Assembly: GCA_964500775.1 (NCBI GenBank)
Contig: CAZCQG010000006.1
Coordinates: 5,584 to 69,583, forward strand
Origin: an uncultured Campylobacterales bacterium
GTDB taxonomy: Bacteria; Campylobacterota; Campylobacteria; Campylobacterales; CAZCQG01
DNA: 64,000 nt
Direction of reading: 5' to 3'
The notes under the pieces were generated by a model. That model was given only the letters and a program-made list of their open reading frames with translations. It was not told the DNA's origin and searched no databases. A program made the translations under genes and the position numbers. This document shows, piece by piece, positions 5,882-43,642 of the stretch. Each line of letters opens with the position of its first letter. Within the stretch, counting starts at the first letter, position 1.

Positions 5882-5934
5882 AATTATTTGAACCTTAACC
5901 TTATAGTTTTTAGAGGGGTATTGTATTGAAAGAA

Positions 5935-6825: not shown

Positions 6826-6897
6826 ATTGCAACTCTTATGTTATTGTGGATTGTTTATTTTATTCTTTTTTTATGAAAAAAGGATAAAGCGGGGCGA

Positions 6898-7836: not shown

Positions 7837-7886
7837 GGTTGTCCCTAGAACGCTTTTTATTAACTATTCCCTATAATTGTACATAA

Positions 7887-11058
<3,172 letters not shown>

Positions 11059-11069
<11 letters not shown>

Positions 11070-11580
11070 ATTCTGTTTCCTTCATTTCTTTGAAGGCTGA
11101 TTGCAAGTATTGTTCCAACTCGCCTATGCTCTCAAATACATCGGGGAGATATTTTTGTGCTCTATAATAAAATAGCGACGCACCGTCACTTAGAAGCGCT
11201 TCATTTGCGCTCAAACCGTCTCTTATTTTTAGCTCAAAACAAATATTTTCATAAACACCGAGGTATTTTAGATCTATACCTCTAGGTTCGCTAGAGAGTT
11301 TATCTCCGTAGAGAGAGTAGGCTTTGGTATGCTGAGGTAGATTGAAGTTTCCTATTTTTTCATTTTTTTTACTATCAAAGACATCGCACTTGAGGCAATA
11401 GTCATAACAGAGTACGTCTAGATTTTCTATGGAATATATGCTTGAGAGTTCTACGAAATTTTTTATGCTTGGTTTTTTCTTTTGTTCGAGTTTTTGGAAG
11501 GATATTATCGCTACGGTGTAAACTATTGAGAGGAGCAAAACTACAATCAATAGCTCAAAAAGGGTGAATGATTTTTTCAA
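11059..11580 (-). CDS. minor pseudopilin (prepilin-type N-terminal cleavage/methylation domain)
   Basis: 173 aa. N-terminus MKKS|FTLFELLIVVLLLSIV fits the class III signal (short basic leader, F+1, E+5, hydrophobic helix). Confidence 0.75.
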
Positions 11581-11603
11581 AAGTTCTCCGATTGGTTTAA
11601 CAT

Positions 11604-11632
11604 AAAACCGAGGGAGGAGAGACCTCGGTTTT
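11604..11632 (-). terminator. hairpin between the 1198-aa gene and the pseudopilin/gspF genes (candidate partial terminator)
   Basis: AAAACCGAGG (11604-11613) pairs perfectly with CCTCGGTTTT (11623-11632) around a 9-nt loop. On the minus strand the stem runs into TTTTATGTT. It sits 12 nt after the stop of the 1198-aa ORF. Confidence 0.55.
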
Positions 11633-11644
11633 ATAGTTTATTTA

Positions 11645-14600
11645 TTAGAAAGATTGACCGCCAAGACCGTAATCATTGATCTCAGTAAGCGTGCCGTGGC
11701 TACCAGCATTATAAGATGTACTGAATGTACCGTAGTACAATGTGCCGTCTACATATACATAGAACACTTCACCTTCATAGAAACTTCCGTGATATGTTAT
11801 TTGCATCTCGATTGTGCTACCGCCGCTTGTCGTTACATCATAGTAAGTCGCAGATGTCATTGACAATGTATCAGCGTTTGCTTCGCCTTTGAAAGCTATT
11901 TTCAATGGACTGCCTGCATAACCGTCATAATTTATAACGTTCAGCATCACTGCATTCTCAGTGTCTTCATAGTTAGTATTGGCAACTGTTGCCGTCAAAG
12001 TATCCGTCTTGCTATTTGCAACAGGCGCAAAGTTTACCGCTTGCATATCGGAATACATATAGTAATCGTTTTTAGCAAGTACTTTAAGACTATGGTACGG
12101 ATTTGTAGAGCTAATAGCACTGATTCCTAGCGTGCTGTTTGCATCCCAACCGAACAACTCGCCCAAGCTTGAGTAATCTGTAATACTTAGAGCAGTTTTT
12201 GTGCCGGCTCTAAATGCATAGTCGGAAATATTACCCTCAAACACTTGTATGGTATCGCTAGATGTGATATCCAAGCCTGTACCAGTAGCATTGTATGCTA
12301 CCGTCGGAGTAGCAGGTTTTGCCCAGTATGAGTAAAGCGAAGTTGCAAAGCTCGCCGTATTGCCAAAGCCGTCATACGCAGTGATTATTACAGGAACATC
12401 ACTTGTCGTAGGATCTGCGAATAGGATATATGCATCATTCAATCTTAATGTGAACGTACCGTCACTATTTCTTCTCAACGGAATAACATCACCGGAAACC
12501 GAAGCTACAACGTTATAAGAGTTATCGCTATAGTCTGTACCGGAATCACCCGCCAAGCCGTTAAGCTTAAACGTTACTGTTCTATTGATGTGGTTTCTAA
12601 CATCGCCCAAACCTGTTGTAGCACTTACACCGTTGTCAAAGTGTACCTGTACATAGCCGGCTGAATTTCCTGTCACGCCATTAGATAGCGTTATAGTTGC
12701 AGGTGTGAAATCATCACCCAATCTCACCCAGTAACCTAGTTTAGAATCTGTCCATAGCAACTCTTGCGTATCTTGCATATCTATATCAAACCAAGTCTCG
12801 GCATCTTTTGTAGCATCTAGCCCAAGCCATCTTACTGAACCATCAGTAGTTGATGTTTGTGCAGCAGTTAATACTGAAACTACATTCTTGCCTGTTTGCG
12901 TAACAAGTTTTTGTATCGGGTTGTTTGCCGGCATATCATCTGCCCAGTAAATGGCTTTCGTAAGGTCGGCTCTACTTCCTGATCCAAGTGTGATGTTACC
13001 GTCTATTACACCGCTAGAGTTTGGATTCGAAAGATCGTATCCGTGACTAATGAACGTACCGTTATAGTCAGATGCTACCGTATGACCATCAGCACCCGTT
13101 AGGTTTTTCAACGTGAACACGTTAGAGATAGGACCTTTTACCATGTCCGTACTTCCACTCAACGCGCCGATTCTTGTATCTAGGTATATACCTTTGTCGG
13201 TACCTGTTTCAAGAATTTGTATGTCATTGATAGGAGTAGAAGTATAACTATCTCTCCAAAGATCCGCACCAAGTACAGTATAGTTGGTATCGCTATTTAT
13301 TGTTACAATAGTTGCGTTCCAATCTTTTGTTGTATCGTTTCTTGCCCCTGCAATTTGAGCAATCGCATAAGAGTGGTTATAGTCGTCATACGACAATAAC
13401 GAGCTCTCCGCATCTGTTCCGCTAGCACGTACATAAAATTGTGTGCCGTTTTGATCGTTATCGTCTTTATAAACTCTAACAACCGTCGCATCCGCAACAC
13501 CAAATCTGTAGTTTGATGCTATGAGAACGCTATCGGTAGTACCGTCAAAGTTTGTATCCAACTCGTACGCTTTTAACTTTAGATCGCTCGCAGTAGAGTC
13601 ATCCGATCTTTTTTTCCAGTTACCAGTGATACTACCGGTCAAATTTGTAATTATATTAGCCGCCAATGTTGCCGGAGTAGCCCCTGCCGTTGACACGTAG
13701 AAGCTAGAATCGGTAACCGTAGTACCGCTACTTGTATACTCATGATACAAGTCGGCAAATTGGATTTCCAAATGCCCGATGCCGGTCATATTCCCTTCAT
13801 TCAACCAAGCACTATTGAGTTTTACCGCCATCAAATAGTCACCGTAAACGGCTGTTTGGTTGTTGTCATTAGCAGCCACCATCGGTAACGCAGTTCCGCT
13901 TGAAGGTCTTGTCGCCACTGAAGTGTTTAATTCAAACTTTCTGTCAGAAACAATCAGTACGTTTGTACCGTTCATAGGATACGCTCTAGTGTTCCCGAAG
14001 TACATCGTACCGTTTCTATCACCCGTTACGATTCTATCGTTTGTTGCAAGTGCTGCACCCAAAGCAGATGTAGCATTTGCTTCTGTCCAATAGGTACCTG
14101 CAATATTTCTTCCGAATGTATCTCTCAACGTATAACCCAAAGAAGTACTTATATCGACTATTGCTGCTGCTGCAGAATATCTAATGGTCTCATCGTTAAA
14201 AGAGAGTAAATGCCAACCGCTATTAAGGTTCATAGTCCCGTATGTACTCTCCCCTATATCAGAACTAGCTAACACCAATCCTGCTTTTGCGGTTGTGTTA
14301 TTTACCCATTGACCGTATGCCCAGTATCCGTGTGCACTCTCAACGTCATTTGTACTGCTTAAAGAGTTTTGACTGTCTGAAAGTCTGCTATCATATACAC
14401 CCCACGCGCCGTTAACATAACCAAATAGCGTCAGGTTGTCATCGGCAGACATAGCATCAAAATTATCCGTTGAAGTAAGCTGCATACTATTTGCAATAAC
14501 CTTTGTTAGGTTATTGTCAGATATGTTCGTATCCAAATACTCATCCAATCCGCTATATGCAGTTGAACTCGAAGAACTTGAAAGCAAAGCAGCCAACTCG

Positions 14601-15241
14601 GACGGAGTTACTCCTAAATCTGCAGTAGTAATAGCATACGGAGCATCGGAAGTATAATCTCTATGTAGTTTTACCCAGTAAAATTCTGTCGTATCGGCAT
14701 ATGTTTCGGTGTTAAATCTTACTTTAACCCATTGTCCTTCCATGTCAGACACGAAGAATACCCTTACCGCGTTTCCGCCCGGTGTGCTAATATACATTGT
14801 ATACACGGGATCGCCGCCGTCTTTCACGTATTCATTCGGTGAAGAAGCCACAGAACCCAAGTGTTGTAACTCAACTAACACATCATCGGTTGCCGCAATG
14901 GTATTGCCGCTTGGATCCTCGGACCCTACCAACAATTCGACACCTATTTCGGCAATCGCCGGAGTACTTACAACCCAACCGCTTCCGCTTGTGCCGCCGG
15001 TAGCGTTGTCATAATATGTTACGTTTCCGTCAGTATCGGCCTCATCCGTAGACGTAGTACCTAGAACATACGTGGTGTCCCAAGTAGGCACGCTGCTACT
15101 ACTCGTACCGTAGGTATATAACCCCTGTGTACCGAATAGCGTCCACTTTTCATGCGGTATCTCGATCTGAGTCCCCGCATTCACGAAAGCCGGAGCAACC
15201 GCTAACATTGCAGCCGCTATCGCACTAACCTTAATTTTCAT
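11645..15241 (-). CDS. large secreted Cys-free Thr/Ser/Asn/Asp-rich protein (S-layer-like; candidate T2SS substrate)
   Basis: 1198 aa with a signal peptide MKIKVSAIAAAMLAVAPAFVNA|GTQ. By my reading there are no cysteines in the whole protein. It is acidic, rich in T/S/N/G/Y, and ends ...GLGGQSF. A strong SD (AAGAGGAGAGAAAG-ATG) precedes the start. Confidence 0.8.
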   Translation of the reverse strand: MKIKVSAIAAAMLAVAPAFVNAGTQIEIPHEKWTLFGTQGLYTYGTSSSSVPTWDTTYVLGTTSTDEADTDGNVTYYDNATGGTSGSGWVVSTPAIAEIGVELLVGSEDPSGNTIAATDDVLVELQHLGSVASSPNEYVKDGGDPVYTMYISTPGGNAVRVFFVSDMEGQWVKVRFNTETYADTTEFYWVKLHRDYTSDAPYAITTADLGVTPSELAALLSSSSSSTAYSGLDEYLDTNISDNNLTKVIANSMQLTSTDNFDAMSADDNLTLFGYVNGAWGVYDSRLSDSQNSLSSTNDVESAHGYWAYGQWVNNTTAKAGLVLASSDIGESTYGTMNLNSGWHLLSFNDETIRYSAAAAIVDISTSLGYTLRDTFGRNIAGTYWTEANATSALGAALATNDRIVTGDRNGTMYFGNTRAYPMNGTNVLIVSDRKFELNTSVATRPSSGTALPMVAANDNNQTAVYGDYLMAVKLNSAWLNEGNMTGIGHLEIQFADLYHEYTSSGTTVTDSSFYVSTAGATPATLAANIITNLTGSITGNWKKRSDDSTASDLKLKAYELDTNFDGTTDSVLIASNYRFGVADATVVRVYKDDNDQNGTQFYVRASGTDAESSLLSYDDYNHSYAIAQIAGARNDTTKDWNATIVTINSDTNYTVLGADLWRDSYTSTPINDIQILETGTDKGIYLDTRIGALSGSTDMVKGPISNVFTLKNLTGADGHTVASDYNGTFISHGYDLSNPNSSGVIDGNITLGSGSRADLTKAIYWADDMPANNPIQKLVTQTGKNVVSVLTAAQTSTTDGSVRWLGLDATKDAETWFDIDMQDTQELLWTDSKLGYWVRLGDDFTPATITLSNGVTGNSAGYVQVHFDNGVSATTGLGDVRNHINRTVTFKLNGLAGDSGTDYSDNSYNVVASVSGDVIPLRRNSDGTFTLRLNDAYILFADPTTSDVPVIITAYDGFGNTASFATSLYSYWAKPATPTVAYNATGTGLDITSSDTIQVFEGNISDYAFRAGTKTALSITDYSSLGELFGWDANSTLGISAISSTNPYHSLKVLAKNDYYMYSDMQAVNFAPVANSKTDTLTATVANTNYEDTENAVMLNVINYDGYAGSPLKIAFKGEANADTLSMTSATYYDVTTSGGSTIEMQITYHGSFYEGEVFYVYVDGTLYYGTFSTSYNAGSHGTLTEINDYGLGGQSF

Positions 15242-15276
15242 CTTTCTCTCCTCTTGTTAAGATTCTCTAATTTCCC

Positions 15277-15291
15277 TTGGCTTGCGAAGCC
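15277..15291 (-). promoter_or_regulatory. small stable hairpin in the putative 5' leader of the 1198-aa gene
   Basis: TGGCTT-GCG-AAGCCA, a 6-bp stem with a 3-nt loop, lies about 35 nt upstream of the start codon. AT-rich -10-like hexamers occur further upstream (15320-15350). Confidence 0.35.
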
Positions 15292-15366
15292 ACTTAACTG
15301 AATAAAACCAAATGATATAATCCAAACTCAAGATTTATATCGACTGATAAAAAAAATACTTTAATT

Positions 15367-17004
15367 TTACGGATCCAATAAAGTATTTTTTACAGGGATT
15401 AACCTCTTTATGCTTGAAGCACATTCCGTTCCACCTTTATTTTCAAACTCGCCTCTATAGCAAGCGCCGTTTGGTATCTTTACATAAAAGACGCTACCGT
15501 TAAAATATTTCGTGGTGGCACTAATCCTTATATATATATCCTCATCGGGATGTACCTCTATATCATAATAAGGTCCGCACCAAGTTTTTGTCGTTGATGA
15601 GTCACTAATCAACGGATAATAAAAATCAATACCTAAATCTACTTTTTGATAGGCGACTTCTAGCGTCTTATCGGGTACCGCTACAGCCTGCCCGCTACTA
15701 CCGTAGCTGACAAACATTTTTAGCTGAGTAAGATTAGTCTCACACGCATTTGGATCGGCAACGCTCAAACTATAATCATATGGATCCGTTACATTTACCG
15801 TGTATTGTCTCGTGGTAGTATTATTAAACTCATTAGTTGCGCTGACATTCATTGTGGTAGAACCTTCTTTTAGGCCCTCCATACAGATGTATTTATCATC
15901 CGTAGAATCGACGTAACTATTTAATACCGTGCTATCAGCTTCCGTAACACTAAATGAGACATTATCGTCACCGACGGCACAAGATTGTGCGTCAAACAAC
16001 ACACAAGTTACCGTCTCATCGCTAACATTTATATCAAATGAACTTGCCGTAGTATTAATTATCGGGTAATCACCGGATTGGCATGTGGTATTTGTATCAT
16101 CACCGCTATTTATCACTATGACATCATACGTTTTTGATGCACTGTTGCCGTATTTGTTCGTTGCGTTTACCGTCATCGTGGTTATACCTTGCTCGATTCC
16201 CAACATGCAAATGGAGTTATTTATATCTGGATTATTATATGTATAGAGTATAGGTAAACCGACGCTACTGCTCAAGGTGACGTTATTATCTCCTCCCTCG
16301 CAGGATTCTACATCAAACGTATAGCAATTTTTATTTGCCTCTCCCGTGTATATCGCAAAATAATTTACCGTAGTATTTATCACCGGATTATCCGACGAGG
16401 TGCAAATATCCGTTGTATTATCATCTGTTGTATTATCGTCTGTTGTATTATCGTCCATATTGACCACCCACACGTCAATCGTTTTTACGGCAGTATTATC
16501 AAGAGAATTTGTTGCTTGAAGACTTAAAGTCGTATTCCCCTCGCTTAGTCCCTGGACGCATAAAGATGAGTCGCTCTGAATATAGGAGCCGATAACAGAT
16601 GCATTGCCGACCAAATAGTTTAGAGCCACATCGCCTTCCGCACAAGCGGTGATGTCAAAGCTAATGCAATTCAGCCCGCCTACTTGTAAGCCGAGGTAAT
16701 TTACGCTTGACATATTTATAATAGGATCCGTGGTGTTGCATTCGCTCGTACCGTCGTCATAGTACGTATAAGGATTTTTATCGCAGTAGCCTTTCAGACC
16801 AAATCCAAAATCACACATTTGGTTATGTTCTTTGTAATAATCAACGCTTTTTAAAATATTACTGGCAAGGTCTTCGCCGAGTTTGGCAAGACTGCCTCCG
16901 TCGCAACCTTTTATCAACAGGGTTAAAGTCGTTATGATGAGGAATCTGATTCCAGCACTACGCACTATTATCCTTTTTATTGATTTTATATACACGTTAA
17001 ACAA
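15367..17004 (-). CDS. secreted/lipoprotein-like protein with three ~100-aa four-cysteine repeats and a (DDNTT)x3 linker
   Basis: 545 aa. TTG start (an alternative GTG lies 3 codons in). N-terminal hydrophobic segment ends LLIKGC, a possible lipobox. Three repeats of the form C..(D)P(I/V)INT(T/S)....C..FD...C..GD.NV......C..G...G.TT..V.ATN. The C-terminal module resembles that of the 1198-aa protein. Confidence 0.75.
   Translation of the reverse strand: MFNVYIKSIKRIIVRSAGIRFLIITTLTLLIKGCDGGSLAKLGEDLASNILKSVDYYKEHNQMCDFGFGLKGYCDKNPYTYYDDGTSECNTTDPIINMSSVNYLGLQVGGLNCISFDITACAEGDVALNYLVGNASVIGSYIQSDSSLCVQGLSEGNTTLSLQATNSLDNTAVKTIDVWVVNMDDNTTDDNTTDDNTTDICTSSDNPVINTTVNYFAIYTGEANKNCYTFDVESCEGGDNNVTLSSSVGLPILYTYNNPDINNSICMLGIEQGITTMTVNATNKYGNSASKTYDVIVINSGDDTNTTCQSGDYPIINTTASSFDINVSDETVTCVLFDAQSCAVGDDNVSFSVTEADSTVLNSYVDSTDDKYICMEGLKEGSTTMNVSATNEFNNTTTRQYTVNVTDPYDYSLSVADPNACETNLTQLKMFVSYGSSGQAVAVPDKTLEVAYQKVDLGIDFYYPLISDSSTTKTWCGPYYDIEVHPDEDIYIRISATTKYFNGSVFYVKIPNGACYRGEFENKGGTECASSIKRLIPVKNTLLDP
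16411..16455 (-). repeat. 15-bp tandem repeat x3 encoding (DDNTT)3
   Basis: Plus-strand units are cgttgtattatcatc, tgttgtattatcgtc and tgttgtattatcgtc. Two units are identical and one differs at 2 positions. All are in frame within the 545-aa ORF. Confidence 0.9.
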
Positions 17005-17319: not shown

Positions 17320-18876
17320 ATGGGAAGGTTGTTTTACAAAACTTCGATAGTATTTCTGTTCTTAATACTATTGGGTGGATGCGGTTCCGGAACAGCCACG
17401 GATAATACTATCGGTGTTTACAAAGGTCCGGTTTATGAAGGGATCGTGAAGGCTGACGACACCGAATGTACTTATGCGGATAGTCCCGGTATGTACAGTT
17501 GCTCAAATTCTCCGGATGACGGTATTTTTTTATATCCCAATTTGGATGGCATAATATCTTACTGCATCACCGACAACTGCGACGATGGAGCTATTCAGCT
17601 AGATTTTCCGTCAAACAAACTTAATACCCCTTTTATGAAAGCACCCAAAGGCTCAAATAAAATCGATATGATAACGACTGCGATATACGACTTGTGGGAG
17701 TACTACGGCAAGGAAGCCGACATAACAAGCATTGTAGAGTTGGTCGCAGAGATGACGGGAGCCGAGTTACCCTCAAACTATTTAACGAACAATCAAAATA
17801 TTACCAACGACAAAGATATAGCGGTACTCAACTATGCCGTCCAAGATGCGGTGGAGCAATTTATCTCTTTAAAAGAGAGCGGGAGCACCGATGAGAACGC
17901 AAAAACAACCTCAAAAGCTCTTTATGAAACAAGATTAGCACAAAACGGAATAAGTAGCTCTAGTACTTTTGAAGATATAGAATCCAAACTTCTTTCTAAA
18001 TTATCTACCGAAGAGAGTATCAGCTATGAAGAAGTAGATTACACTCCGCCTACGGAAGTAGAAACCGAAGAAGTGACTCTTGCGGTAAACGCAACGGCAG
18101 ATATTACCGTAAACAGTACATTGAGTAACGTAACGGCTACCAGTAGCGATACAAGTATAGCTACCGCCTCCGTAAATAGCAGTGTCGTTACAATTACGGC
18201 AGTCGCATCCGGCGATGCGGTAATTTATATCAAAAACGATGGCGCTACGATTATAGTGGTCAATGTTACCGTTACATCTTCAACCCAGGACGATGACGAC
18301 GACAATACTTCAACGACCGTTGAAGAGACTACGGCAAGCGTCACTCAAGGCTCCACGACCGATGTTTCACTCGATGGAATCACGGGAACGATCACCGTTA
18401 CTACGTCTTCAAGTGCTACGGTAACCGTATCCGTCAGCTCCAACACGCTCACCCTATCCGGCATTTCCGTCGGTAGTGCGACCGTGGAAGTAAGTAGTGA
18501 CGGCGTAGTAGTAAAAAGAATTGCCGTAACGGTACTTGCGCAAGGTATTACGGATGTTACAAACAGCTATTCCATAGATTATACGAGTGATGCGCCGCCG
18601 TCAACATACGAGCAAAATAATTATAAGATTTATCAAAACGGCTCGGCACTAGTAATAGACTTTAGCGACTATGCATTCGGCTTCCCGTCCGTAAAAGTTT
18701 CACAACTTTACGACGTTAAGTACGGCAACGCTTTAAATAACATAAACAACACCGCTACGATAAGCGGACTGACGGCTACGATTTCAACGGGTGCACTGTT
18801 GGATGAATTCTACTTATCATTTGCATGTTATGCCGATAGTATAAGGTCGTCAAAAGCGATTATTAAAAAGAAGTAG
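17320..18876 (+). CDS. lipoprotein with two tandem bacterial Ig-like (Big_2-type) domains
   Basis: 518 aa. Lipobox LLGG|CGSG. Two ~70-aa beta-rich repeats (TLAVNATADITV...SSDTSIATASVNSSVVTITAVASGDAVIYI and SVTQGSTTDVSL...TVSVSSNTLTLSGISVGSATVEV) are separated by QDDDDDNTSTT. GGGAG SD lies 7 nt upstream. Confidence 0.75.
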   Translation: MGRLFYKTSIVFLFLILLGGCGSGTATDNTIGVYKGPVYEGIVKADDTECTYADSPGMYSCSNSPDDGIFLYPNLDGIISYCITDNCDDGAIQLDFPSNKLNTPFMKAPKGSNKIDMITTAIYDLWEYYGKEADITSIVELVAEMTGAELPSNYLTNNQNITNDKDIAVLNYAVQDAVEQFISLKESGSTDENAKTTSKALYETRLAQNGISSSSTFEDIESKLLSKLSTEESISYEEVDYTPPTEVETEEVTLAVNATADITVNSTLSNVTATSSDTSIATASVNSSVVTITAVASGDAVIYIKNDGATIIVVNVTVTSSTQDDDDDNTSTTVEETTASVTQGSTTDVSLDGITGTITVTTSSSATVTVSVSSNTLTLSGISVGSATVEVSSDGVVVKRIAVTVLAQGITDVTNSYSIDYTSDAPPSTYEQNNYKIYQNGSALVIDFSDYAFGFPSVKVSQLYDVKYGNALNNINNTATISGLTATISTGALLDEFYLSFACYADSIRSSKAIIKKK

Positions 18877-18886
18877 TTTTCTAAAT

Positions 18887-19582
18887 ATGGCAAATATTAT
18901 TATTCTATTAATATCTTTGATACTCGGGGGAATAACGCTCTACTTCAGCATAGACGATTCTCCCGTCGCGTTTGAACCTATAAAAAAAGAGGTGCAAAAA
19001 AGCGGCGGTACTAAAAATGTAAGCACTCCTAAAAATATTGACATCGAGTACAAATTACAGGGTAGCAATCTCGAAGAGGAGTTAGCCTCTTTACCTGAAG
19101 ACATTGCAAACCAAAATAGAAAAGTGAGACTGTTTATCGAGCAAAATCAAATGTTCTCATCCTATGATCAAAATTATGACGAAGCTCGGTTTAATGATAA
19201 AAACGGCTCTTATGTGGTTAAAGTGATGGTAAAGAATCCGAACGTAAAAACAACCTCTTTTAAAAAAGAGATTATGACAAACATTACTACTCCTGACGGA
19301 ACGTCTATAAATGCAAAAATTGACCCCGAACTAATAGACACTAATGAAAATGTCTACTTGCTTGTAACCAATACGACCACAAAAAAAGAGCAGTTGGTAA
19401 ACATTACTAAGCAGTTAAACGAACAGGTTAAAAATACCAACGGTAATGTCTTAAGTATCACATACAGCGATAACGACAGCGGCATCTCCGTCCCAAGTGA
19501 TACACAAACAAAGTCTTTTACGATAAAACAGCCTCCTTCGATACCCGATGAGGTGCTAAAAAAATTAGGGATAACCGAATAA
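18887..19582 (+). CDS. hypothetical membrane-anchored protein
   Basis: 231 aa. N-terminal TM helix (IIILLISLILGGITLYF), then a polar Asn/Lys/Thr-rich domain with no recognised motif. Confidence 0.45.
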   Translation: MANIIILLISLILGGITLYFSIDDSPVAFEPIKKEVQKSGGTKNVSTPKNIDIEYKLQGSNLEEELASLPEDIANQNRKVRLFIEQNQMFSSYDQNYDEARFNDKNGSYVVKVMVKNPNVKTTSFKKEIMTNITTPDGTSINAKIDPELIDTNENVYLLVTNTTTKKEQLVNITKQLNEQVKNTNGNVLSITYSDNDSGISVPSDTQTKSFTIKQPPSIPDEVLKKLGITE

Positions 19583-19617: not shown

Positions 19618-20463
19618 GTGATTACCCTTACGCTACTTATTGCCTACAATCAGCAGCTAGTAGGTTTTATGATAAAAGACACACAAGCGCTCCGTTCCGA
19701 TATTCAGTTCTCCTATCTTCAGGATGAGGTTAGAAAATTCATAGTCGAGAATCTCAAAGAGAGTAAAACCCCCAAAGAGCTCCACACGATATTGGGTTAT
19801 TTTCCGCTATTTTTATCTGCCGAAAAAGAAGACATCGGCGTTCAAATAGATTGCAAATGCGCATCAAATAAAATAAACATAAATGCCATCGCCGAAACAA
19901 ACGGGACTATTCATAAAAATTATTTTGATTTATTTGTCGCTATTTTCGACAAAAACAATATAAGCGACCCCGAATTTTTAGCAAATATGGTTGTAGATGC
20001 TATAGATTCCGATTATGTCGAAAATGATTACGAGAGCGAAATATCATTAAAGAATCCATTGTTTCGACAGGGGAAAATAGTGGACGAAGGGGCTTTTTCG
20101 GAGATTCTATACGCTTATGCAAAAACCAAAAACGATGAAGATGCCCTCAAAGTCGATTGGAATACCTATTTTTCCTACGGTATTTCCGATACGCTCGATT
20201 TTAATTGTATGGATCAAAAACTTATCGATACGATTTTTTCCGATACGATGATCACGAAAGAGAGCGATGTCATCTACGAAAACGCGGATGAATTGTCTCT
20301 GCGGAGTGATGAGGATAAAGAGATTTTGAGCAGATTTAATATACACTTCTATGATTCCAAATTACTATGCAATGTTGCGGTCTCTAAAGACAAAACTATA
20401 AGTACCTATAGTTATCTCATCGATCTTAGCAAGAATAAGGCGGCCTTTTTTGAAAAAAATTAA
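19618..20463 (+). CDS. GspK-like minor pseudopilin (true start probably upstream, see findings)
   Basis: The track start is a GTG in the middle of a hydrophobic helix. The open frame upstream reads ...IRDNRIKKGIALLITIFFVITLTLLIAY, which resembles GspK N-termini (basic leader plus G.ALL helix). An internal KININAI resembles the GspK (K/R)xNxN motif. Confidence 0.5.
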   Translation: MITLTLLIAYNQQLVGFMIKDTQALRSDIQFSYLQDEVRKFIVENLKESKTPKELHTILGYFPLFLSAEKEDIGVQIDCKCASNKININAIAETNGTIHKNYFDLFVAIFDKNNISDPEFLANMVVDAIDSDYVENDYESEISLKNPLFRQGKIVDEGAFSEILYAYAKTKNDEDALKVDWNTYFSYGISDTLDFNCMDQKLIDTIFSDTMITKESDVIYENADELSLRSDEDKEILSRFNIHFYDSKLLCNVAVSKDKTISTYSYLIDLSKNKAAFFEKN

Positions 20464-21418
20464 CCCGACAGGTTTTTTACGATTTTTTAGCCCGAAACGA
20501 CCGAGGGCATTCGTTGATAAAAAAAGCAAACCTTTTCCGAAAGATTTCAATAAAAAAATAGATATTATCCTCTCCCCCTCCTTCTACTGGGCGAGGGTAG
20601 AAAAACTCCCCGTAAAATACGAATATCAAGCCAAATCACTCCTTCCATCGCTTTTTGACGGTATCATCCCCGAGGGTGAGTACAACTACGAAGCGATAAA
20701 AAAAGCAAACGGCGAGTTTTTGGTATTGGCGTACAATTCAAAAGAGATAATCCACACATTAGAAGAGCTTGGATTAAAACTTTCCAAAGTGCGGGATGTT
20801 TATTTCGCGCAAGAGTGCTTCGATGATATGGATATTCCTTTGGAGATAGACGACAAAAATGCGCTCATCAAGCAAGGGGCTCTACTCACCATCATCCCAA
20901 AAGAGCTAGTAGAAAATACCGAATCTCTCAAAGAGCGGCTAAAGACTTTTTCGTTGCCTACCCATAAAATACGATTGAGTCGCTTTGATAAAGTGATAGA
21001 CGAAAAAGGATTGAATAAGATACTGTATCTTCTACTCGGTTTTATCGCCCTGTATCTTGTGCAATTACTCATTTACAAACAAGAGTACAATGCACTTGAC
21101 GAAAAGCAGCGCGAGGTCATCGCAAAATACAATCTTCCGCCAACTTCATTACAGCAAGATGCGATTATCAAAAATCTCTCCGTTATCGAAGATTCTCAAA
21201 CGAATATCAGAAAGGTTCTCATAGCGCTCTTTGACGTTCGATTGAGTTCACAGGAGTATTTCAAAAAAATATCACTCAAAGGGGATAGAATCGAGTTTGA
21301 GATTTTTCTGCTCAATCCAAAAAAGGCAGAGCTTGTTAAAAGCGTTCTCCAAAAACGTATCGATTTTACGAGCATAGTGGTAGAAGAAAATAGCTTGAAA
21401 GCGGCAGCAAAAATATGA
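20450..21418 (+). CDS. GspL-slot bitopic inner-membrane protein
   Basis: 322 aa. A ~190-aa cytoplasmic part (IILSPSFYWARVEKLPV..YQAKSLLPSLFDG resembles the GspL N-terminus), a single TM helix (ILYLLLGFIALYLVQLLIY), and a ~110-aa periplasmic tail. Overlaps the upstream gene by 14 nt. Confidence 0.45.
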   Translation: MKKINPTGFLRFFSPKRPRAFVDKKSKPFPKDFNKKIDIILSPSFYWARVEKLPVKYEYQAKSLLPSLFDGIIPEGEYNYEAIKKANGEFLVLAYNSKEIIHTLEELGLKLSKVRDVYFAQECFDDMDIPLEIDDKNALIKQGALLTIIPKELVENTESLKERLKTFSLPTHKIRLSRFDKVIDEKGLNKILYLLLGFIALYLVQLLIYKQEYNALDEKQREVIAKYNLPPTSLQQDAIIKNLSVIEDSQTNIRKVLIALFDVRLSSQEYFKKISLKGDRIEFEIFLLNPKKAELVKSVLQKRIDFTSIVVEENSLKAAAKI

Positions 21419-21819
21419 TGAAAATAAACCCTCTCTATATTTTGGTACTCATTACTTCCGTCATAGCGATGCTTGTGATACAAAATAATAAATACGCCGA
21501 AACGCTAAAAATAAGCAATAAAAACATAGAGATACTCGAAAAAAAAGGGCAAAAGCTCACGCAATTAAAAGAGGACTGGGGCAACAAAGACGCTTTGGCA
21601 AAAATCAAAAGAATCCTCAAAAACCAAAAACTGACCGAAGCTACTATCGATATGGTTGAAAGCGATAAAAAAATAACTCTTAGCTCCAAAGGGATTACTG
21701 CCGTAGAGCTTGATACATTGTCCTCATCGATACTCAATGATACACTAGAGGTAAAAGCGTTTGAAGTGGAGCGCAAAACCCCTTTAATAAGTGCATTTTA
21801 TATGGAGATAGCGAAATAA
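21415..21819 (+). CDS. GspM-slot small bitopic membrane protein
   Basis: 134 aa with an N-terminal TM helix (LYILVLITSVIAMLVI) and a ~105-aa periplasmic domain. ATGA overlap with the upstream gene. Assigned from size, topology and position only. Confidence 0.35.
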   Translation: MMKINPLYILVLITSVIAMLVIQNNKYAETLKISNKNIEILEKKGQKLTQLKEDWGNKDALAKIKRILKNQKLTEATIDMVESDKKITLSSKGITAVELDTLSSSILNDTLEVKAFEVERKTPLISAFYMEIAK

Positions 21820-22355
21820 TGGCAAAAAAATTACTCAAGGGTTTTCTCTTTTTTCTCGCGTTATTACTTCTCATAATCATCTTTTTACCGAAAAAAAATC
21901 TCTACTATATGCTCGAATCACAATTACTACAAGAGAATAAAATTATCCTTTCGGATGAAACACTCAAAGATCAATACCTCTATCTCGATGTTTCAAATGC
22001 GACTTTGTATTATGAAGGGATAGAAGCGGGTCTAGTGGGCAATATCAAATTTGTCCCCTTAATTTTTGCAAATATCATCAATGTCGATAACGCAAGTTTT
22101 AGTAGCGAAATCAGCAATATCATCCCTAAAAAAGTTCAGAACCTAAGAATCTACCACACCATAATAGACCCGCTAAACATCAACATAACCGCAAAGGGGG
22201 ATTTCGGTGAGATTTTCGGTTTTATTAGTTTGGCTACGCAAGAGCTATTTTTAGAGCTTATTCCCAGTGAGAGTATGTACACGAAATATCGGGGAATCTT
22301 ATTGAAATTTAAAAAGGTGGATAACAAGTATGTCCTCAGTACAAAACTTCAATAA
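21819..22355 (+). CDS. GspN-slot membrane-anchored protein (function unassigned)
   Basis: 178 aa with an N-terminal TM helix (GFLFFLALLLLIIIFL). TAATG junction with the upstream gene. No recognisable motif. Confidence 0.3.
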   Translation: MAKKLLKGFLFFLALLLLIIIFLPKKNLYYMLESQLLQENKIILSDETLKDQYLYLDVSNATLYYEGIEAGLVGNIKFVPLIFANIINVDNASFSSEISNIIPKKVQNLRIYHTIIDPLNINITAKGDFGEIFGFISLATQELFLELIPSESMYTKYRGILLKFKKVDNKYVLSTKLQ

Positions 22356-23142
22356 AACCGCTTCGGTTATCCTCATACTCGCTCTTATCGCAAAGACTAT
22401 CGCTATAGGTTTATTTTATTATCTCCCCAAAGACGGGATAGATTTTAATTTGCAAGAAAAAATAACCCTCCCCTACCACGGATATAGATTCTCAAAAGCA
22501 CTCGGTCTAAACGAAGAAGCGGTGCAACAAGTCAATATTCAAAAGCCAAAAGAGATATATTCTATCGACGATATGGTGCTCAAAGCGGTATACGTAGAAG
22601 AGCAAGGGGGATTTATCTTCGTATCGCACAAATCTGAGCTCGACAAAACGGTGCTCCTGAATATCGGCGATGAATTTAAAGGGTATCTTTTGGAAAAAGT
22701 CCAACCCAAAGAGGCGATCTTCTCTATGGGCGGCAGAGAGTATAAGCTTAGCCTCATACAAGAGAGCGAAGAGGCGCAAATAGAAGAATCTATCTCTATG
22801 GAAGAAAACGTAGCAGGTGATGACGCGGTGCGGGTTCTCCCTAAAAAAGGGGTGGAGTATTACACCAATAATCTCAAAGACATATGGAAAAACATCGCGA
22901 TTAAAGAGTACCGCGAAGGGAACAAGATCGCAGGATTTGTCATCACTTCGATAAAAAAAGGATCTCTTTTTGACAAGTTAGGTCTTGAAGAAGGGGATGT
23001 CATCGTCGCCGTAAACAATAAGGAGATCAAGAGTTTCGCGCAAGCATTCGGCGCATACCGAGACTTAAAAAGTGCTCCTGCCATCAAACTCACTATACTA
23101 AGGAACGGCATCAAAAAAGAGCTTGAATACGAAGTGATGTAG
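22330..23142 (+). CDS. gspC: type II secretion system protein C (TM anchor + HR-like region + C-terminal PDZ)
   Basis: 270 aa. N-terminal TM helix, a central region (VLKAVYVEEQGGFIFV...GYLLEKVQPKEAIFSMGGREYKL), and a PDZ domain (GFVITSIKKGSLFDKLGLEEGDVIVAVNNKEI). Sits immediately upstream of the secretin. Confidence 0.7.
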   Translation: MSSVQNFNKTASVILILALIAKTIAIGLFYYLPKDGIDFNLQEKITLPYHGYRFSKALGLNEEAVQQVNIQKPKEIYSIDDMVLKAVYVEEQGGFIFVSHKSELDKTVLLNIGDEFKGYLLEKVQPKEAIFSMGGREYKLSLIQESEEAQIEESISMEENVAGDDAVRVLPKKGVEYYTNNLKDIWKNIAIKEYREGNKIAGFVITSIKKGSLFDKLGLEEGDVIVAVNNKEIKSFAQAFGAYRDLKSAPAIKLTILRNGIKKELEYEVM

Positions 23143-23206: not shown

Positions 23207-25063
23207 ATGAAGTATTTTAGACTGTTTCAAGCGATAATTTTAGCGCTACTTATTGCCCTTTCGCCCTTGAGCGGCGCGTATGATTATAAAAATTCAGGCT
23301 CTACGCCCGTCAAGATCGACTTCAAAGATCTAGAGATAAACGACTTCATAAAGCTGGTTTCAAAAATCCTCAATAAAAACGTATTGCTAAGCTATGATAT
23401 TCCCGGTAAAGTGGAGTTTATCTCCAATGCACCTATTTACAAAGAAAACATATTAGAAATTCTCCTCTCCACGCTTGATTCCAAAGGATACACGCTAGTA
23501 GATAGCGGCACCTATTTCGAGGTGGTCAAAAGTAATGAAGCGACAAACTACAACCTTCCTATCGTGCGGAGCGCAAAACACGATTATAAACAAATGGTGA
23601 GCGAGACGATTACCGTGCGAGGCGACACGGCAGAATCGGTCGCCGCCAAGATAAAACATCTCAACTCAAAATACGGAAAAATCATCACCGTAAAAGAGAG
23701 CAATAAACTCCTAGTTACCGATTTCCCGAAAAATATCGAATCGATAAAAGAGACGATCAGGGTCATAGAAAATCAGTACAAAAAAAGTATGAAGGTCGTC
23801 GAACTCTACAATACAAAAGTCGAAAACGTCATCGAAAATATTATGAAGATCTCTAGGGGTCTCCTTGATAGTAGAATCGAAAGCGAAGCTTATGAACTGA
23901 TTCCGAATAAAGAAAACAACTCTATCGTCATGATCGGTACGGAAAAAAGTCTTGAAGTGCTTGATGAAATCATCGCACAGGTGGATGTCAAAAAAGAAGA
24001 GACCGAGATAGTAAGCGACAATACTATCAAGATCGTAAATCTTCATAACTCGGATGCCGAAGAGGTTGCTAAAGTCGTCCAATCCGTCATTAGCGGAAGA
24101 CAATACAAAGATCCTACGGAAAAACCAAACATAAGCGCAGATAAAGAGCTCAACGCAATCGTCGTGATAGGAAGCAAAAGTAGCGTTTATGAGATAGAGC
24201 GCTTAATAGGTGAACTCGACGTAGAAAAACAACAAGTCTACATCAAAGCCCAAATAATCGAAATAAGCCAAAAAAGGACGAAAGACCTAGGTATCAAATA
24301 CGGTTTGGAGGCCGGAACCGCTACTTCCAACGGTCTTTTTACTCTCGGTACGAATCTAGGAGGTTCGGCAATCGCATCTACCTTGGCAAATAGCTTTCTT
24401 AATTTTGATACGAGTGCATTGAAATCAGCCTTTGCCCTTGGGGCATCTCTCAACTTTCTCAAAGTAAATAACGCGGCCGACATCGTGAGCGAACCGACGA
24501 TTTTGTGTTTAGACAATAAAGAATCTTCCATCTTTGTGGGTGAAGTAACTTCTATCACCACGAGTACTACCTCGGGGACAAGTGCGACCGATTTAGCGAG
24601 AAATAGCTTCTCAAGGGAATCGGTAGGCTTATCACTCAAGGTAAAACCGAGAATCTCGCAGGATGGCAAGGTGATGATAGAAGCCCACACGAAACTTGAA
24701 GACTTTTCAGGAAGTGTCAGTGCGAGCGGTCAGCCCGATACGACAAATCGCGAGGTACAAACCGTAGCGATAGTAAAAAACGGTGAAAGCGTCATCATCG
24801 GCGGACTTATCAAAAATAAAGAGACCGACGCGTCCCAAAATGTCCCTTTGCTCTCGGATGTTCCGGTGTTGGGGAATCTGTTTAAATACAATAATGACTA
24901 TAAAGACAAAACAAACTTGGTGATAATACTCACCCCCTATATCGTCGAAAAAAGCTCGAATCTCACCACTCTAATGGAGAAGCTCACAGAGTTAAACAAA
25001 TTGCAAAAACAGTATAATGACCGCGTTTTAAGTGAACTAAACGAAAAGAGAAAAAAATTGTAA
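23207..25063 (+). CDS. gspD: type II secretion system secretin GspD
   Basis: 618 aa with a signal peptide. N0-like domain (KIDFKDLEINDFIKLVSKILNKNVLL...GKVEFIS...L.STLDSKGYTLV), repeated N-domains, and a secretin core ending VPLLSDVPVLGNLFKYNNDYKDKTNLVIILTPYIV. Confidence 0.9.
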   Translation: MKYFRLFQAIILALLIALSPLSGAYDYKNSGSTPVKIDFKDLEINDFIKLVSKILNKNVLLSYDIPGKVEFISNAPIYKENILEILLSTLDSKGYTLVDSGTYFEVVKSNEATNYNLPIVRSAKHDYKQMVSETITVRGDTAESVAAKIKHLNSKYGKIITVKESNKLLVTDFPKNIESIKETIRVIENQYKKSMKVVELYNTKVENVIENIMKISRGLLDSRIESEAYELIPNKENNSIVMIGTEKSLEVLDEIIAQVDVKKEETEIVSDNTIKIVNLHNSDAEEVAKVVQSVISGRQYKDPTEKPNISADKELNAIVVIGSKSSVYEIERLIGELDVEKQQVYIKAQIIEISQKRTKDLGIKYGLEAGTATSNGLFTLGTNLGGSAIASTLANSFLNFDTSALKSAFALGASLNFLKVNNAADIVSEPTILCLDNKESSIFVGEVTSITTSTTSGTSATDLARNSFSRESVGLSLKVKPRISQDGKVMIEAHTKLEDFSGSVSASGQPDTTNREVQTVAIVKNGESVIIGGLIKNKETDASQNVPLLSDVPVLGNLFKYNNDYKDKTNLVIILTPYIVEKSSNLTTLMEKLTELNKLQKQYNDRVLSELNEKRKKL

Positions 25064-25064
25064 T

Positions 25065-26582
25065 ATGTTAAAAATCGAGAGTATCCACGACGTAAGTTTA
25101 GAACCCGTAGAGATAGAGGGGATCGACTTAAATATCGCCCTCAAAAACTATGTTCTTTTTACAAAGTTCGAGGGGAAAACCATCGTTGCCCTCTCCGAAG
25201 AATACCTCACGCAAAGCTTGGATTATATTTCCAAACAAAATTTCAACTACAAAATAAAATTTCTTGATGAAGAATCTTTTGAGCGTCTCTACAATAAATT
25301 TCTAGAGATTCGCACCGATAGAGAGATAGAAAACTTTGAGAGCACCCCTGAAGAGAGCGTAGACGAAGACCTCTCGCTTACCGAATTTTTGCGCAATAGT
25401 GCAGATATTTTAACAAGCGAAGAATCAGCACCCATCATAAAATTCGTAAACTCGTTATTCTATCAAGCGATCAAAAAAAGGGCGAGCGACATCCACGTAG
25501 AGATGCACGAACACAAAGGGGAGGTGCGATTCCGAGTGGACGGCGTACTTATCAAACACGTCGATCTCGACCTCAAAATCACCGCCCTCATTATCTCTAG
25601 GATAAAGGTCATCTCCAACCTCGACATCAGCGAAAAGAGAGTCCCCCAAGACGGCAGGACGCAGGTAAAGATCGCAGGGAAAAAACTTGACATCAGGGTC
25701 TCTGACCTCCCGACGTATTACGGAGAGCGGATTGTTATGAGGATTTTGATGCAGAGTGAGGACATCCCGCATCTCGAAGAACTAGGCTTTAAAAGCGCGA
25801 TGACTAAAGAGTTTGAAAACTTGCTCAAATATAGCCACGGCATCATCCTAGTCACCGGTCCTACGGGGAGCGGGAAATCAACCACGCTCCACTCGTTTCT
25901 CCAAAAGCTCTCCACGCCCGACAAAAACATCATTACCGTCGAAGATCCCGTGGAGTACAAAGCCGATAATATCAATCAGATTCAAGTCAACGCCAAAGTA
26001 GGGTTAACCTTTGCCGCGGGTTTGCGCTCTATTCTTCGTCAAGACCCGGACGTCATTATGGTGGGGGAGATCAGGGATGCCGAAACGGCAAAAATAGCTA
26101 CGCAAGCTGCGCTGACCGGACACTTGGTCCTCTCTACGCTCCACACCAATAATGCCACATCGACTATCGCAAGACTCGTGGATATGGGAGTAGAGCCGTA
26201 TTTGCTCTCTTCCGTTCTAATAGGGGCTTTGGCACAGCGACTGGTGCGTAAACTTTGTCCCCACTGCAAAGAAGAGGACAAGGTCGCCGAAAATTATGCA
26301 CAAGAGTTTAACCTCCCTCAAGGTGCAAAAATCTACAATGCAAAAGGGTGTAGACAATGCAACTATACCGGATACAACGGCAGAGTCGCTGTAGGGGAGT
26401 TGTTTTTGATGAATGATGCGATAAAAAAAGCAATCAAAGATACCACCAACGACCAAATCATCAGGGAATACGCCAAGAAAAAAGGGCTCAAGACCCTCTC
26501 CGATCAGCTCAAAGAGGAGTTGCTAGCAGGCAACACTTCATTAGAAGAGGCGATCAGAGTCGGTTTAAAAGATGATGCGTAA
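25065..26582 (+). CDS. gspE: type II secretion system ATPase GspE
   Basis: 505 aa. Walker A GPTGSGKST, Asp box, Walker B (DPDVIMVGEIRD), His box (TGHLVLSTLHTN) and a tetracysteine motif CPHC...CRQC. Confidence 0.9.
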   Translation: MLKIESIHDVSLEPVEIEGIDLNIALKNYVLFTKFEGKTIVALSEEYLTQSLDYISKQNFNYKIKFLDEESFERLYNKFLEIRTDREIENFESTPEESVDEDLSLTEFLRNSADILTSEESAPIIKFVNSLFYQAIKKRASDIHVEMHEHKGEVRFRVDGVLIKHVDLDLKITALIISRIKVISNLDISEKRVPQDGRTQVKIAGKKLDIRVSDLPTYYGERIVMRILMQSEDIPHLEELGFKSAMTKEFENLLKYSHGIILVTGPTGSGKSTTLHSFLQKLSTPDKNIITVEDPVEYKADNINQIQVNAKVGLTFAAGLRSILRQDPDVIMVGEIRDAETAKIATQAALTGHLVLSTLHTNNATSTIARLVDMGVEPYLLSSVLIGALAQRLVRKLCPHCKEEDKVAENYAQEFNLPQGAKIYNAKGCRQCNYTGYNGRVAVGELFLMNDAIKKAIKDTTNDQIIREYAKKKGLKTLSDQLKEELLAGNTSLEEAIRVGLKDDA

Positions 26583-26994
26583 CGCCTTTAGCTTAGTAGA
26601 AGTAGTCATTGCCGTTACCATCATCTCTATGCTCTCGGTCGCGATTCTCCAAGTCTCGCAAAACTCTATCGCTTATACGCAAGATTCTAAAGAGAGATTC
26701 CGAGATACCGTATTGCTTACCCTTGATGTTCGAGAGAATCTAAACAAGAACAAACAAGACGAGTTGTTTATTGATACCCTCCTCGAAGAAAAATACGCTA
26801 TACCCGAGAAAGAGCTGCAATTTTTCAAAGATAAAAAAATAGCCTACAAACTAGAATCCGACGAGGAGCTAAAATTCATACTTCTTGATAAAGAGAGCGG
26901 TATGCCTCCCATCGACTTGCCTCGCCTAGCAAAGGTGACGCTTCGTGACGCAAAACATGGGTCGTTTATCTATATTCTACGAGATGCGCATTGA
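26572..26994 (+). CDS. minor pseudopilin (GspH/I-like)
   Basis: 140 aa. MMRNA|FSLVEVVIAVTIISMLSVAIL is a prepilin-type N-terminus with E+5. Overlaps gspE by 11 nt. Confidence 0.7.
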   Translation: MMRNAFSLVEVVIAVTIISMLSVAILQVSQNSIAYTQDSKERFRDTVLLTLDVRENLNKNKQDELFIDTLLEEKYAIPEKELQFFKDKKIAYKLESDEELKFILLDKESGMPPIDLPRLAKVTLRDAKHGSFIYILRDAH

Positions 26995-27497
26995 AAAAAG
27001 GTTTTACGCTAGTAGAGATAATAGTCGCGATTACTATTTTTAGCATCGCTACACTGTTGATGTACAGGGTCACCGAATCGCTTAGGGTGGCAAACGGCAA
27101 CCTCAAAAGACATTCAGAAATCGCAAAAAACGATAACCTGCTACTAGAAAATTTTAAACTCGATTTTCTCTACTCCGATGAGGGAAATGTTACATACAAA
27201 AAGGGTGAGCGCTTTGATGCTATAATGTTTACCTCAAGACATTCACTATACGGGATTTCTCGACCTTATATCGAATACCACGTATCGAAAAATAAAAAAC
27301 TTTGGAGAGTGGAATCGAGCATAGATCACAATCTGACTATAGAAGACGAACACTTTATGTATGTAAAATTTGATGCCATAGCCCGAGATGTCGAGAGGTT
27401 TAAAGTGTACGAAGCAAACGGGAGTAAGCTAGTATATATACAAAGCGCCGGCAAAGAGCCGCTCTTTTTCGAGCTAGCTCATCCGAGCGCTATATAA
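26991..27497 (+). CDS. minor pseudopilin (GspJ-like)
   Basis: 168 aa, TTG start. MKKG|FTLVEIIVAITIFSIATLL is a canonical G|FTLxE prepilin motif. Confidence 0.7.
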   Translation: MKKGFTLVEIIVAITIFSIATLLMYRVTESLRVANGNLKRHSEIAKNDNLLLENFKLDFLYSDEGNVTYKKGERFDAIMFTSRHSLYGISRPYIEYHVSKNKKLWRVESSIDHNLTIEDEHFMYVKFDAIARDVERFKVYEANGSKLVYIQSAGKEPLFFELAHPSAI

Positions 27498-43632: not shown

Positions 43633-43642
43633 CAGGATTATT

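Follow-up and report, generated by a model that had tools for sequence, protein, structure and literature searches.

A candidate N-glycosylated coat protein encoded within a rearranged type II secretion locus of an uncultured Campylobacterales bacterium

The question raised by this locus is what kind of exported protein is encoded by a large gene lying among those of a type II secretion system (T2SS) in an uncultured Campylobacterales bacterium. The window, that is, the whole 64-kb stretch (64,000 nucleotides, nt) analysed from contig CAZCQG010000006.1, contains on its minus strand a coding sequence that starts with ATG, stops with TAA and specifies a product of 1198 amino acids (aa). In a preliminary description made from the letters, this product was proposed to be a surface-layer (S-layer) subunit served by a T2SS dedicated to it. 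Sec export, acidity and the T2SS setting were retained from that interpretation, whereas neither S-layer homology nor conserved linkage to T2SS genes was found, and a dense set of predicted N-glycosylation sites had been overlooked. Because the protein is secreted, is encoded inside a T2SS cluster and carries 17 sites of the type used by the oligosaccharyltransferase PglB, a heavily glycosylated coat protein appears probable; the fuller reading, in which it is a subunit of a heavily N-glycosylated cell-surface coat exported by the T2SS in the window genome, is held tentatively, at slightly less than an even chance.

Export signal, predicted N-glycosylation sites and protein family

The 1198-aa protein contained no cysteine and was rich in T (12.2%), S (9.9%), A (9.4%), G (8.8%), D (8.3%), N (6.9%) and Y (5.8%), with T/S/N/G/D/Y summing to 52% and K plus R to 5.0%, and its mature form had a pI of 4.23 and a mass of 126 kDa; the reading frame, the lack of cysteine and the acidic, K/R-poor composition were all as first described. 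Its N-terminus, MKIKVSAIAAAMLAVAPAFVNA ahead of GTQ, possessed a basic n-region, a hydrophobic h-region and a V-N-A cleavage motif when read from the letters, in agreement with the Sec signal ending in AFVNA noted previously, and it has the appearance of a classical signal peptidase I signal; in the AlphaFold2 (AF2) model this region was a helix of low confidence (residues 2-18). The N-terminal Sec signal expected of a type II secretion substrate was thereby found in this protein, the relatives described below also starting with signal peptides, and it would provide the periplasmic exposure expected of a PglB substrate.

The extended sequon D/E-X-N-X-S/T, where X is not Pro, occurred 17 times in the protein versus 2.0 +/- 1.4 times in composition-matched shuffles (z = 10.8-11.5). 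Asp or Glu was present at position -2 in 63% of the 27 N-X-S/T sites of the protein and in 54% of the 885 sites of the family, its frequency being about 10% at the other offsets from -6 to +7 of N-X-S/T and 11% at -2 of Asn residues outside N-X-S/T (2,200 sites). The acidic -2 requirement is the hallmark of the Campylobacter-type PglB. Homologues of PglB are found across the Epsilonproteobacteria, including Sulfurimonas denitrificans, Sulfurovum and Nitratiruptor, together with the acidic -2 preference (PMC4894442, PMC2952790, PMC6025236), while no pglB or other pgl gene was located within the window. Since PglB acts in the periplasm, the sequon signature is independent support for export by Sec and passage through the periplasm, and it is more readily reconciled with a Sec-plus-T2SS route than with a type I one. 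Like the substrates of the Campylobacter-type PglB, the 1198-aa protein thus combines a Sec signal with the extended sequon and its acidic -2 residue. Known PglB substrates usually have one to a few sites, unlike the family to which this protein belongs, most members of which contained 9 to 26 predicted sites (a few contained 0 to 2), a density nearer to that of archaeal S-layer glycoproteins.

Certain sequons were conserved in position, N1004 being shared by 19 of 32 sequences, N269 by 15 and N239 by 14. Within the window, 41 sequons were observed in the 80 open reading frames of at least 120 aa, and 29 of them were located in just two adjacent genes, that is, 17 in the 1198-aa gene and 12 (z about 12) in the gene for a 545-aa lipoprotein, which included a DDNTT-DDNTT-DDNTT run. 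Sequon-rich lipoproteins were also encoded beside family members elsewhere, one of 767 aa with 13 sequons (z = 12.8) at locus L005 and one of 213 aa with 5 at locus L021. As a separate observation, three D/E-X-N-X-S/T sequons were present in the 168 aa of the GspJ-like pseudopilin (nt 26991-27497, plus strand; z about 8); this component of the T2SS pseudopilus may itself be N-glycosylated.

No match to the 1198-aa protein was obtained in Pfam, NCBIfam or PDB sequences, in keeping with the initial failure to recognise any domain. A word-indexed search of 5.8 billion proteins returned the query only, and a query with the family profile added one relative; such a search was unsuited to this protein, as low-complexity words swamp the candidate list, and exhaustive HMMER searching was required. 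The latter, run against 1.84 billion cluster representatives, retrieved, with the query itself, 39 proteins, of which 26 had E<=1e-10. With few exceptions the full-length relatives were 1,070 to 1,340 aa long, and the masses of the family proteins were about 125-140 kDa. A profile built from 32 members matched each member over its full length, at about 1,125 positions, indicating a family of fixed architecture and not a repeat protein. All relatives that could be placed belonged to Campylobacterota; they were annotated as hypothetical and originated from Sulfurimonas, "Helicobacteraceae", Campylobacterota metagenome-assembled genomes (MAGs) and vent metagenomes. Their T/S/N/G/D/Y content was 41-54% and their K+R content 4-12%, and they were acidic (pI 4.1-5.6) except for two of pI 8.7. 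As they held 0 to 7 cysteines, the lack of cysteine, formerly regarded as a hallmark, is true of the 1198-aa protein and is not a family trait. Identity within the family was 21-40%, and the almost invariant residues, mostly Trp, Gly and Tyr, look structural. Neither a description of this family nor of an S-layer in Sulfurimonas-like Campylobacterota was found in the literature; the 1198-aa protein appears to found an undescribed family that is restricted to Campylobacterota and has a novel combination of features.

Searches of PDB with profiles of the whole family and of two sub-modules gave a marginal match to an FN3 domain (CNTFR, E = 1.4) and one to HIV gp120 (E = 5e-4), the latter being attributed to the chance composition of the FYxY..LYYGxF motif. 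Single members matched Flagellin_IN and FlgE_D3 at E about 0.005, and a giant flagellin or hook protein was rejected in view of the Sec signal, the mostly beta model and the weakness of these matches. A sub-profile of the C-terminal 120 or so residues (FYVY..LYYGxF) had a further match, at about residues 100-220, in 30 of the 31 full-length members (lowest E value 2e-11), and homologous modules are therefore present at both ends of the protein. This end module weakly matched the C-terminal ~50 aa of the 545-aa lipoprotein (BLASTP E = 1e-3; HMM domain E = 5e-4), as well as a 261-aa protein encoded beside the homologue at locus L005 and a 212-aa family fragment at locus L008.

When modelled by AF2 without an alignment, the 1198-aa protein gave a predicted local distance difference test (pLDDT) value of 30, and with the 40-sequence family alignment a pLDDT of 74.4 and a predicted template modelling score (pTM) of 0.70 were obtained. 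The latter model was mostly beta with few helices, and its pTM suggests a compact multidomain body. Foldseek comparison with PDB yielded weak matches to immunoglobulin (Ig)/FN3 modules of adhesins (E = 2e-5 to 8e-3), namely MpIBP (5irb, 2e-5), SiiE, fibronectin and GhpA, at template modelling (TM) scores of ~0.1, and neither an enzyme fold nor an S-layer structure, RsaA-like ones included, was among the matches; those against a viral library were equally generic. An outer-membrane barrel or autotransporter, considered in view of the C-terminal Phe, was rejected because the last module of the model is a beta-sandwich and the C-terminal extremity is the family motif Q-[ST]-[IF]-x-K-P, which stops three residues short in the 1198-aa protein. 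A conserved D-x-N-x-D-G-x-x-D sequence at residues 562-570 looks like a calcium site.

Type II secretion locus and expression signals

The T2SS context recognised at the outset was substantiated by genes for GspF, a GspH-like pseudopilin, GspC with a PDZ domain, GspD, GspE, further pseudopilins and GspK/L/M/N-like proteins (Table 1), and the window T2SS appears to be complete but rearranged. The plus-strand T2SS genes diverge from an intergenic region that is shared with the minus-strand group of lipoprotein, 1198-aa protein, gspH and gspF genes. The gsp linkage expected of a type II substrate was thereby observed, the 1198-aa gene lying between the lipoprotein gene and gspH-gspF and opposite gspK...J. 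At three Sulfurimonas MAG loci (L002-L004), where GspF shared 54-55% identity with that of the window, the T2SS genes were simply arranged as one colinear G-H-F-K-L-M-N-C-D-E-I-J operon preceded by housekeeping genes, and these operons had no counterpart of the 1198-aa gene. Comparison with them therefore indicates that the H-F block has been inverted in the window and that four extra genes, encoding proteins of 1198, 545, 518 and 231 aa, occupy the junction. The window organism belongs to an unclassified Campylobacterales lineage, its aspartyl-tRNA synthetase sharing ~70-73% identity with those of Hydrogenimonas, Helicobacter, Wolinella and Sulfurimonadaceae. The convergent 3' ends of gspF (minus strand) and ligA (plus strand, nt 7911-9869) overlap by 18 nt (9852-9869), which marks one edge of the rearranged block, and gspG adjoins a gene for a Pom-family outer-membrane protein (nt 62254-63177), whereas it is the first gene of the operon in the Sulfurimonas relatives.

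The 1198-aa gene was preceded at 4 nt by the Shine-Dalgarno sequence AGGAGAG, the strength of which had been pointed out before. A T-run followed by GATATAAAT in the intergenic leader was considered a candidate promoter; it was not detected in a sigma-70 scan. A hairpin in the leader that had been called stable, GGCUU-CGC-AAGCC at about nt 15277-15291, does exist, but folding of the whole 125-nt leader was no better than that of shuffles (z = 0.09), and the hairpin was rejected as a notable feature. The perfect 10-bp hairpin reported just past the stop codon was, on the other hand, upheld. It consisted of AAAACCGAGG, a 9-nt loop and CCTCGGTTTT followed by AT, its 10 perfect pairs being extendable to 12 and its tail being UUUUAU, and its folding energy was -17.3 kcal/mol versus -4.5 +/- 1.8 in shuffles (z = -7.2), none of 200 shuffles being as good. 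Since only ~25 nt separate this hairpin from the TTG start of the gspH-like gene, there is no space for a separate promoter between them. Among the window genes of more than 250 aa, the 1198-aa gene had the lowest effective number of codons (ENC), 44.3 versus 48-62, with a G+C content at third codon positions (GC3) of 0.39. With its candidate promoter, strong Shine-Dalgarno sequence and strong terminator before gspH-gspF, the gene looks like a transcription unit of its own, and the succession of a strong Shine-Dalgarno sequence, a strong terminator and same-strand machinery genes may indirectly point to the layout typical of an abundant subunit with assembly genes expressed at a low level.

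Proposed role and competing explanations

In the route proposed for the coat protein, the signal peptide, which is present, would bring it via Sec into the periplasm, where a PglB-type oligosaccharyltransferase, a presumed enzyme adding presumed glycans, would glycosylate many of the 17 observed sites. The folded glycoprotein would then cross the outer membrane through the surrounding T2SS, a step suggested by gene position and for the window genome only, and the terminator would permit an excess of cargo over GspH and GspF made from a common transcript. Speculatively, it might be retained at the surface with the co-encoded sequon-rich 545-aa lipoprotein via the terminal module common to both, and subunits might contact each other through the homologous end modules. 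What is inferred here comprises the glycosylation itself, dependence on the T2SS, retention at the surface, abundance and any lattice. A role at the cell surface is further supported by diversity of a surface type within the family, in that a single metagenome yielded seven variants, paralogues occurred in tandem and one contig bore two copies. The seven divergent variants, in metagenome Ga0316593 (loci L013-L020), each lay on a contig of 2-5 kb ending near the gene, which suggests strain-level hypervariability that breaks assemblies, and the two copies on the one contig lay 8 kb apart; a scan of metagenome loci, which returned contigs of 4-5 kb only, added no context.

The purpose of general N-glycosylation in Campylobacterota outside the pathogens is poorly understood. 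The family provides a concrete and testable candidate for a major PglB substrate, consisting of large exported proteins with 10-25 position-specific sequons and sequon-rich lipoprotein partners, and it may be the main client of N-glycosylation in environmental Campylobacterota; its features suggest that these bacteria wear a glycoprotein coat. In addition, the pairing of a surface-layer gene with an adjacent T2SS, an arrangement of Gammaproteobacteria, is extended by the window to another phylum, the window illustrates how cargo genes can be captured into a general T2SS operon, and the family proteins are potentially useful as natural scaffolds for bacterial glyco-engineering.

Several observations weigh against this role. 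Genes for GspC, D, E, F, G or L were absent from the 21 other family loci (216 kb), that is, the linkage expected to be conserved among homologues of a type II substrate was not found there and the T2SS adjacency of the family appears confined to the window genome, and BLAST of the window partners (545, 518 and 231 aa) against the neighbours at other family loci gave no homologue. Five family members had only 0-2 sequons, the confidence of the structural model was moderate (pLDDT 74.4), and the low ENC might stem in part from atypical composition, given the GC3. Known N-glycoproteins of C. jejuni are mostly periplasmic or membrane-bound, so that sequons alone are no proof of export past the periplasm. 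At four independent loci, a relative was located a few kb from fliK-flgD-flgE together with proteins of 640-770 and ~270-310 aa, several of which read as lipoproteins, and sometimes with an LPP20-like lipoprotein. At locus L024 (nt 3813-11602), tandem paralogues of 1282 and 1281 aa were flanked by GT4/AsnB-like genes on one side and a Maf-type (MptE-like) gene of 1307 aa on the other, a setting typical of flagellin glycosylation islands. The flagellar-hook neighbours and the Maf-type island point to a possible alternative role. Another family locus had a GT4 gene upstream, further loci were flanked by housekeeping genes, and genes for Big_2 (Ig-domain) lipoproteins neighboured family members. 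This pattern of contexts fits a variable surface component and also raises the explanation of a flagellum-associated or periplasmic protein, considered below. As a separate observation, a conserved secreted protein of 134-167 aa (31-53% identity between loci) was encoded directly downstream of several family members (L006, nt 3879-4283; L010, nt 4335-4748; L011, nt 14072-14575), followed by a gene for a small Gly/Ser-rich lipoprotein; this pair was missing from the window.

A true paracrystalline S-layer subunit with a dedicated T2SS, after the Aeromonas VapA/Sps system, is the best of the alternatives, although a doubtful one. The composition, acidity and low cysteine content are compatible with it, as are the uniform length and the colinearity of the members and the compactness of the model (pTM 0.70); the homologous end modules could form lattice contacts, and the gene has its own terminator and a strong codon bias. 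The Aeromonas precedent invoked in the preliminary description proved sound, as the S-layer gene vapA lies with the dedicated T2SS genes spsD-L (PMC4483657), and the Pseudoalteromonas S-layer gene for Slr4 likewise adjoins a T2SS (PMC7821379). However, no resemblance to known S-layer proteins or structures was found in Pfam, NCBIfam, PDB or Foldseek searches: sequence and profile comparisons with the first three detected none of the described S-layer families and anchoring domains (SLH, RsaA/RTX, SapA, VapA, Slr4 and others), so the recommended check against S-layer and adhesin families gave no match, and the recommended structure prediction and fold search produced a model that matched no S-layer structure and weakly matched Ig/FN3 modules. 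Nor was a T2SS dedicated to an S-layer borne out, as the window T2SS is an orthologue of the general Sulfurimonas T2SS and not a second, dedicated system, and is unlinked to the relatives at their 21 loci. A literature report of an S-layer in Sulfurimonas-like Campylobacterota was likewise not found.

The 1198-aa protein resembles VapA/AhsA of Aeromonas salmonicida/hydrophila (SpsD-L, ApsE) in being an acidic, in its own case putative, surface protein with a Sec signal encoded beside a full T2SS gene set (PMC4483657), for which export from Sec to periplasm to T2SS is proposed, but it differs in size (126 kDa versus about 50 kDa for VapA), in showing no detected sequence or fold relationship, in its dense N-glycosylation sequons and in a T2SS linkage that is not conserved in the family; furthermore, Aeromonas has a second, dedicated T2SS, whereas that of the window, in the phylum Campylobacterota, appears to be a general one with cargo genes inserted. 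With Slr4 of Pseudoalteromonas tunicata, the 1198-aa protein shares the position of an uncharacterised protein with a signal peptidase I signal directly beside a T2SS cluster, by which it is proposed to be exported (PMC7821379), but Slr4 threads onto the beta-helix of RsaA and its T2SS adjacency is conserved, whereas the 1198-aa protein had no RsaA-like match and such adjacency in one genome only. In the same phylum, the S-layer proteins of Campylobacter fetus and C. rectus (SapA, Crs) are large, acidic surface-array proteins occurring as several variable paralogues; they lack an N-terminal signal peptide and exit by a type I system (SapDEF) that bypasses the periplasm. The 1198-aa protein is similarly large and acidic but has a Sec signal and PglB sequons, which need periplasmic passage, and no sequence similarity to SapA/Crs was found.

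A combined hypothesis, in which the family are S-layer subunits glycosylated by PglB at about 10-25 sites and exported by the T2SS in the window genome, is considered unlikely. If true, the sequon-rich 545-aa lipoprotein would be the outer-membrane anchor via the common end module, and the pgl pathway of environmental Campylobacterota would have an S-layer subunit family as its main natural client. To our knowledge, the family would moreover provide the first N-linked S-layer glycoprotein described in Bacteria, a trait otherwise typical of Archaea.

Rather unlikely, too, is a secreted adhesin or biofilm-matrix glycoprotein that forms no lattice, is exported by the T2SS and attaches to mineral, sulfur or host surfaces. 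The sole structural matches were the Ig/FN3 modules of giant adhesins (MpIBP 5irb, SiiE, GhpA), Ig-domain (Big_2) lipoproteins are encoded nearby, the sequence at residues 562-570 resembles a calcium site, and T2SS genes are reported to be induced on elemental sulfur in Sulfurovum (PMC10045233). The likeness to giant adhesins extends to beta-sandwich modules, but the latter are repeat-expanded, variable in length and exported by type I or other routes, whereas the family is of fixed length, compact in the model and Sec-dependent, with TM scores of ~0.1 only. Variable-number tandem Ig-like repeats, the mark of repeat adhesins, were not observed, all members being colinear with the one profile, and the Big, FN3 and cadherin models of Pfam matched none of 40 family members; the high pTM also favours a compact body over beads on a string.

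A periplasmic or flagellum-associated N-glycoprotein, that is, an envelope or flagellar accessory whose T2SS placement is an accident of rearrangement, is improbable. The four fliK-flgD-flgE loci with their LPP20-like lipoprotein, the tandem copies between the GT4/AsnB-like and Maf-type genes, the restriction of T2SS linkage to the window and the periplasmic location of most known PglB substrates argue for it. Against it stand the extreme divergence of the family (21-40% identity) and the occurrence of many variants in a sample and of paralogues in a genome, which is unusual for a motor part, the housekeeping surroundings of other members, the strong acidity and scarcity of K/R residues, which are typical of extracellular proteins, and the position of the window gene, which precedes gspH-gspF on their strand, no promoter space being left past the terminator.

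A T2SS-exported enzyme (polysaccharide lyase, protease or glycosidase) is very improbable, for although hydrolases are frequent among T2SS substrates and one weak Foldseek match to an endo-beta-N-acetylglucosaminidase (2vtf, E = 3e-3, TM 0.07) was obtained, no matching family, enzymatic or other, was present in Pfam, NCBIfam or PDB for the 1198-aa protein and 40 relatives, the near-invariant Trp, Gly and Tyr look structural, and the enzyme homology that the preliminary description had named as counting against an S-layer appeared neither there nor in the fold searches.

Coordinates of the locus and other genes in the window

The features of the 1198-aa gene and its T2SS neighbours are collected in Table 1.

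Table 1. Positions in the window of the 1198-aa gene, its expression signals and the neighbouring T2SS genes
Feature	Position (nt)	Strand	Remarks
Coding sequence of secreted acidic protein	11645..15241	-	1198 aa; founding member of an undescribed Campylobacterota family; 17 D/E-X-N-X-S/T sequons
Signal peptide coding part	15176..15241	-	Residues 1-22, MKIKVSAIAAAMLAVAPAFVNA, before G; read from sequence
Shine-Dalgarno sequence AGGAGAG	15246..15252	-	4 nt ahead of ATG
Intergenic leader and candidate promoter	15253..15366	-	T-run, then GATATAAAT; promoter inferred
Intrinsic-terminator-like hairpin	11604..11632	-	Between the 1198-aa gene and gspH-gspF; -17.3 kcal/mol, z = -7.2 versus shuffles
GspF platform protein	9852..11069	-	
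GspH-like pseudopilin	11059..11580	-	Immediately 3' of the terminator
545-aa lipoprotein	15367..17004	-	Cys-rich; about four Ig-like repeats; 12 sequons; candidate outer-membrane partner or anchor
518-aa lipoprotein	17320..18876	+	Ig-like repeats; 1 sequon only; heads the divergent T2SS operon
231-aa membrane-anchored protein	18887..19582	+	Fourth gene missing from Sulfurimonas T2SS operons
GspK-, L-, M-, N-like genes and GspC	19618..23142	+	GspC with PDZ domain
GspD secretin	23207..25063	+	
GspE ATPase	25065..26582	+	
Two minor pseudopilins, GspI- and GspJ-like	26572..27497	+	Second with 3 sequons
GspG major pseudopilin	63229..63657	-	~36 kb from the remaining T2SS genes

Two further clusters were observed on the plus strand of the window. 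Nt 41315-46641 encoded a second set of a Secretin-domain protein, a T2SSE ATPase with an MshEN domain and a T2SSF protein, which looks like an MSHA-type type IV pilus locus distinct from the T2SS. Nt 33654-38289 encoded an antiporter-like subunit (Proton_antipo_M) and a protein similar to Complex1_49kDa/NiFeSe large subunits, and this cluster looks like a membrane-bound group-4-type [NiFe] hydrogenase or a complex-I-like module.

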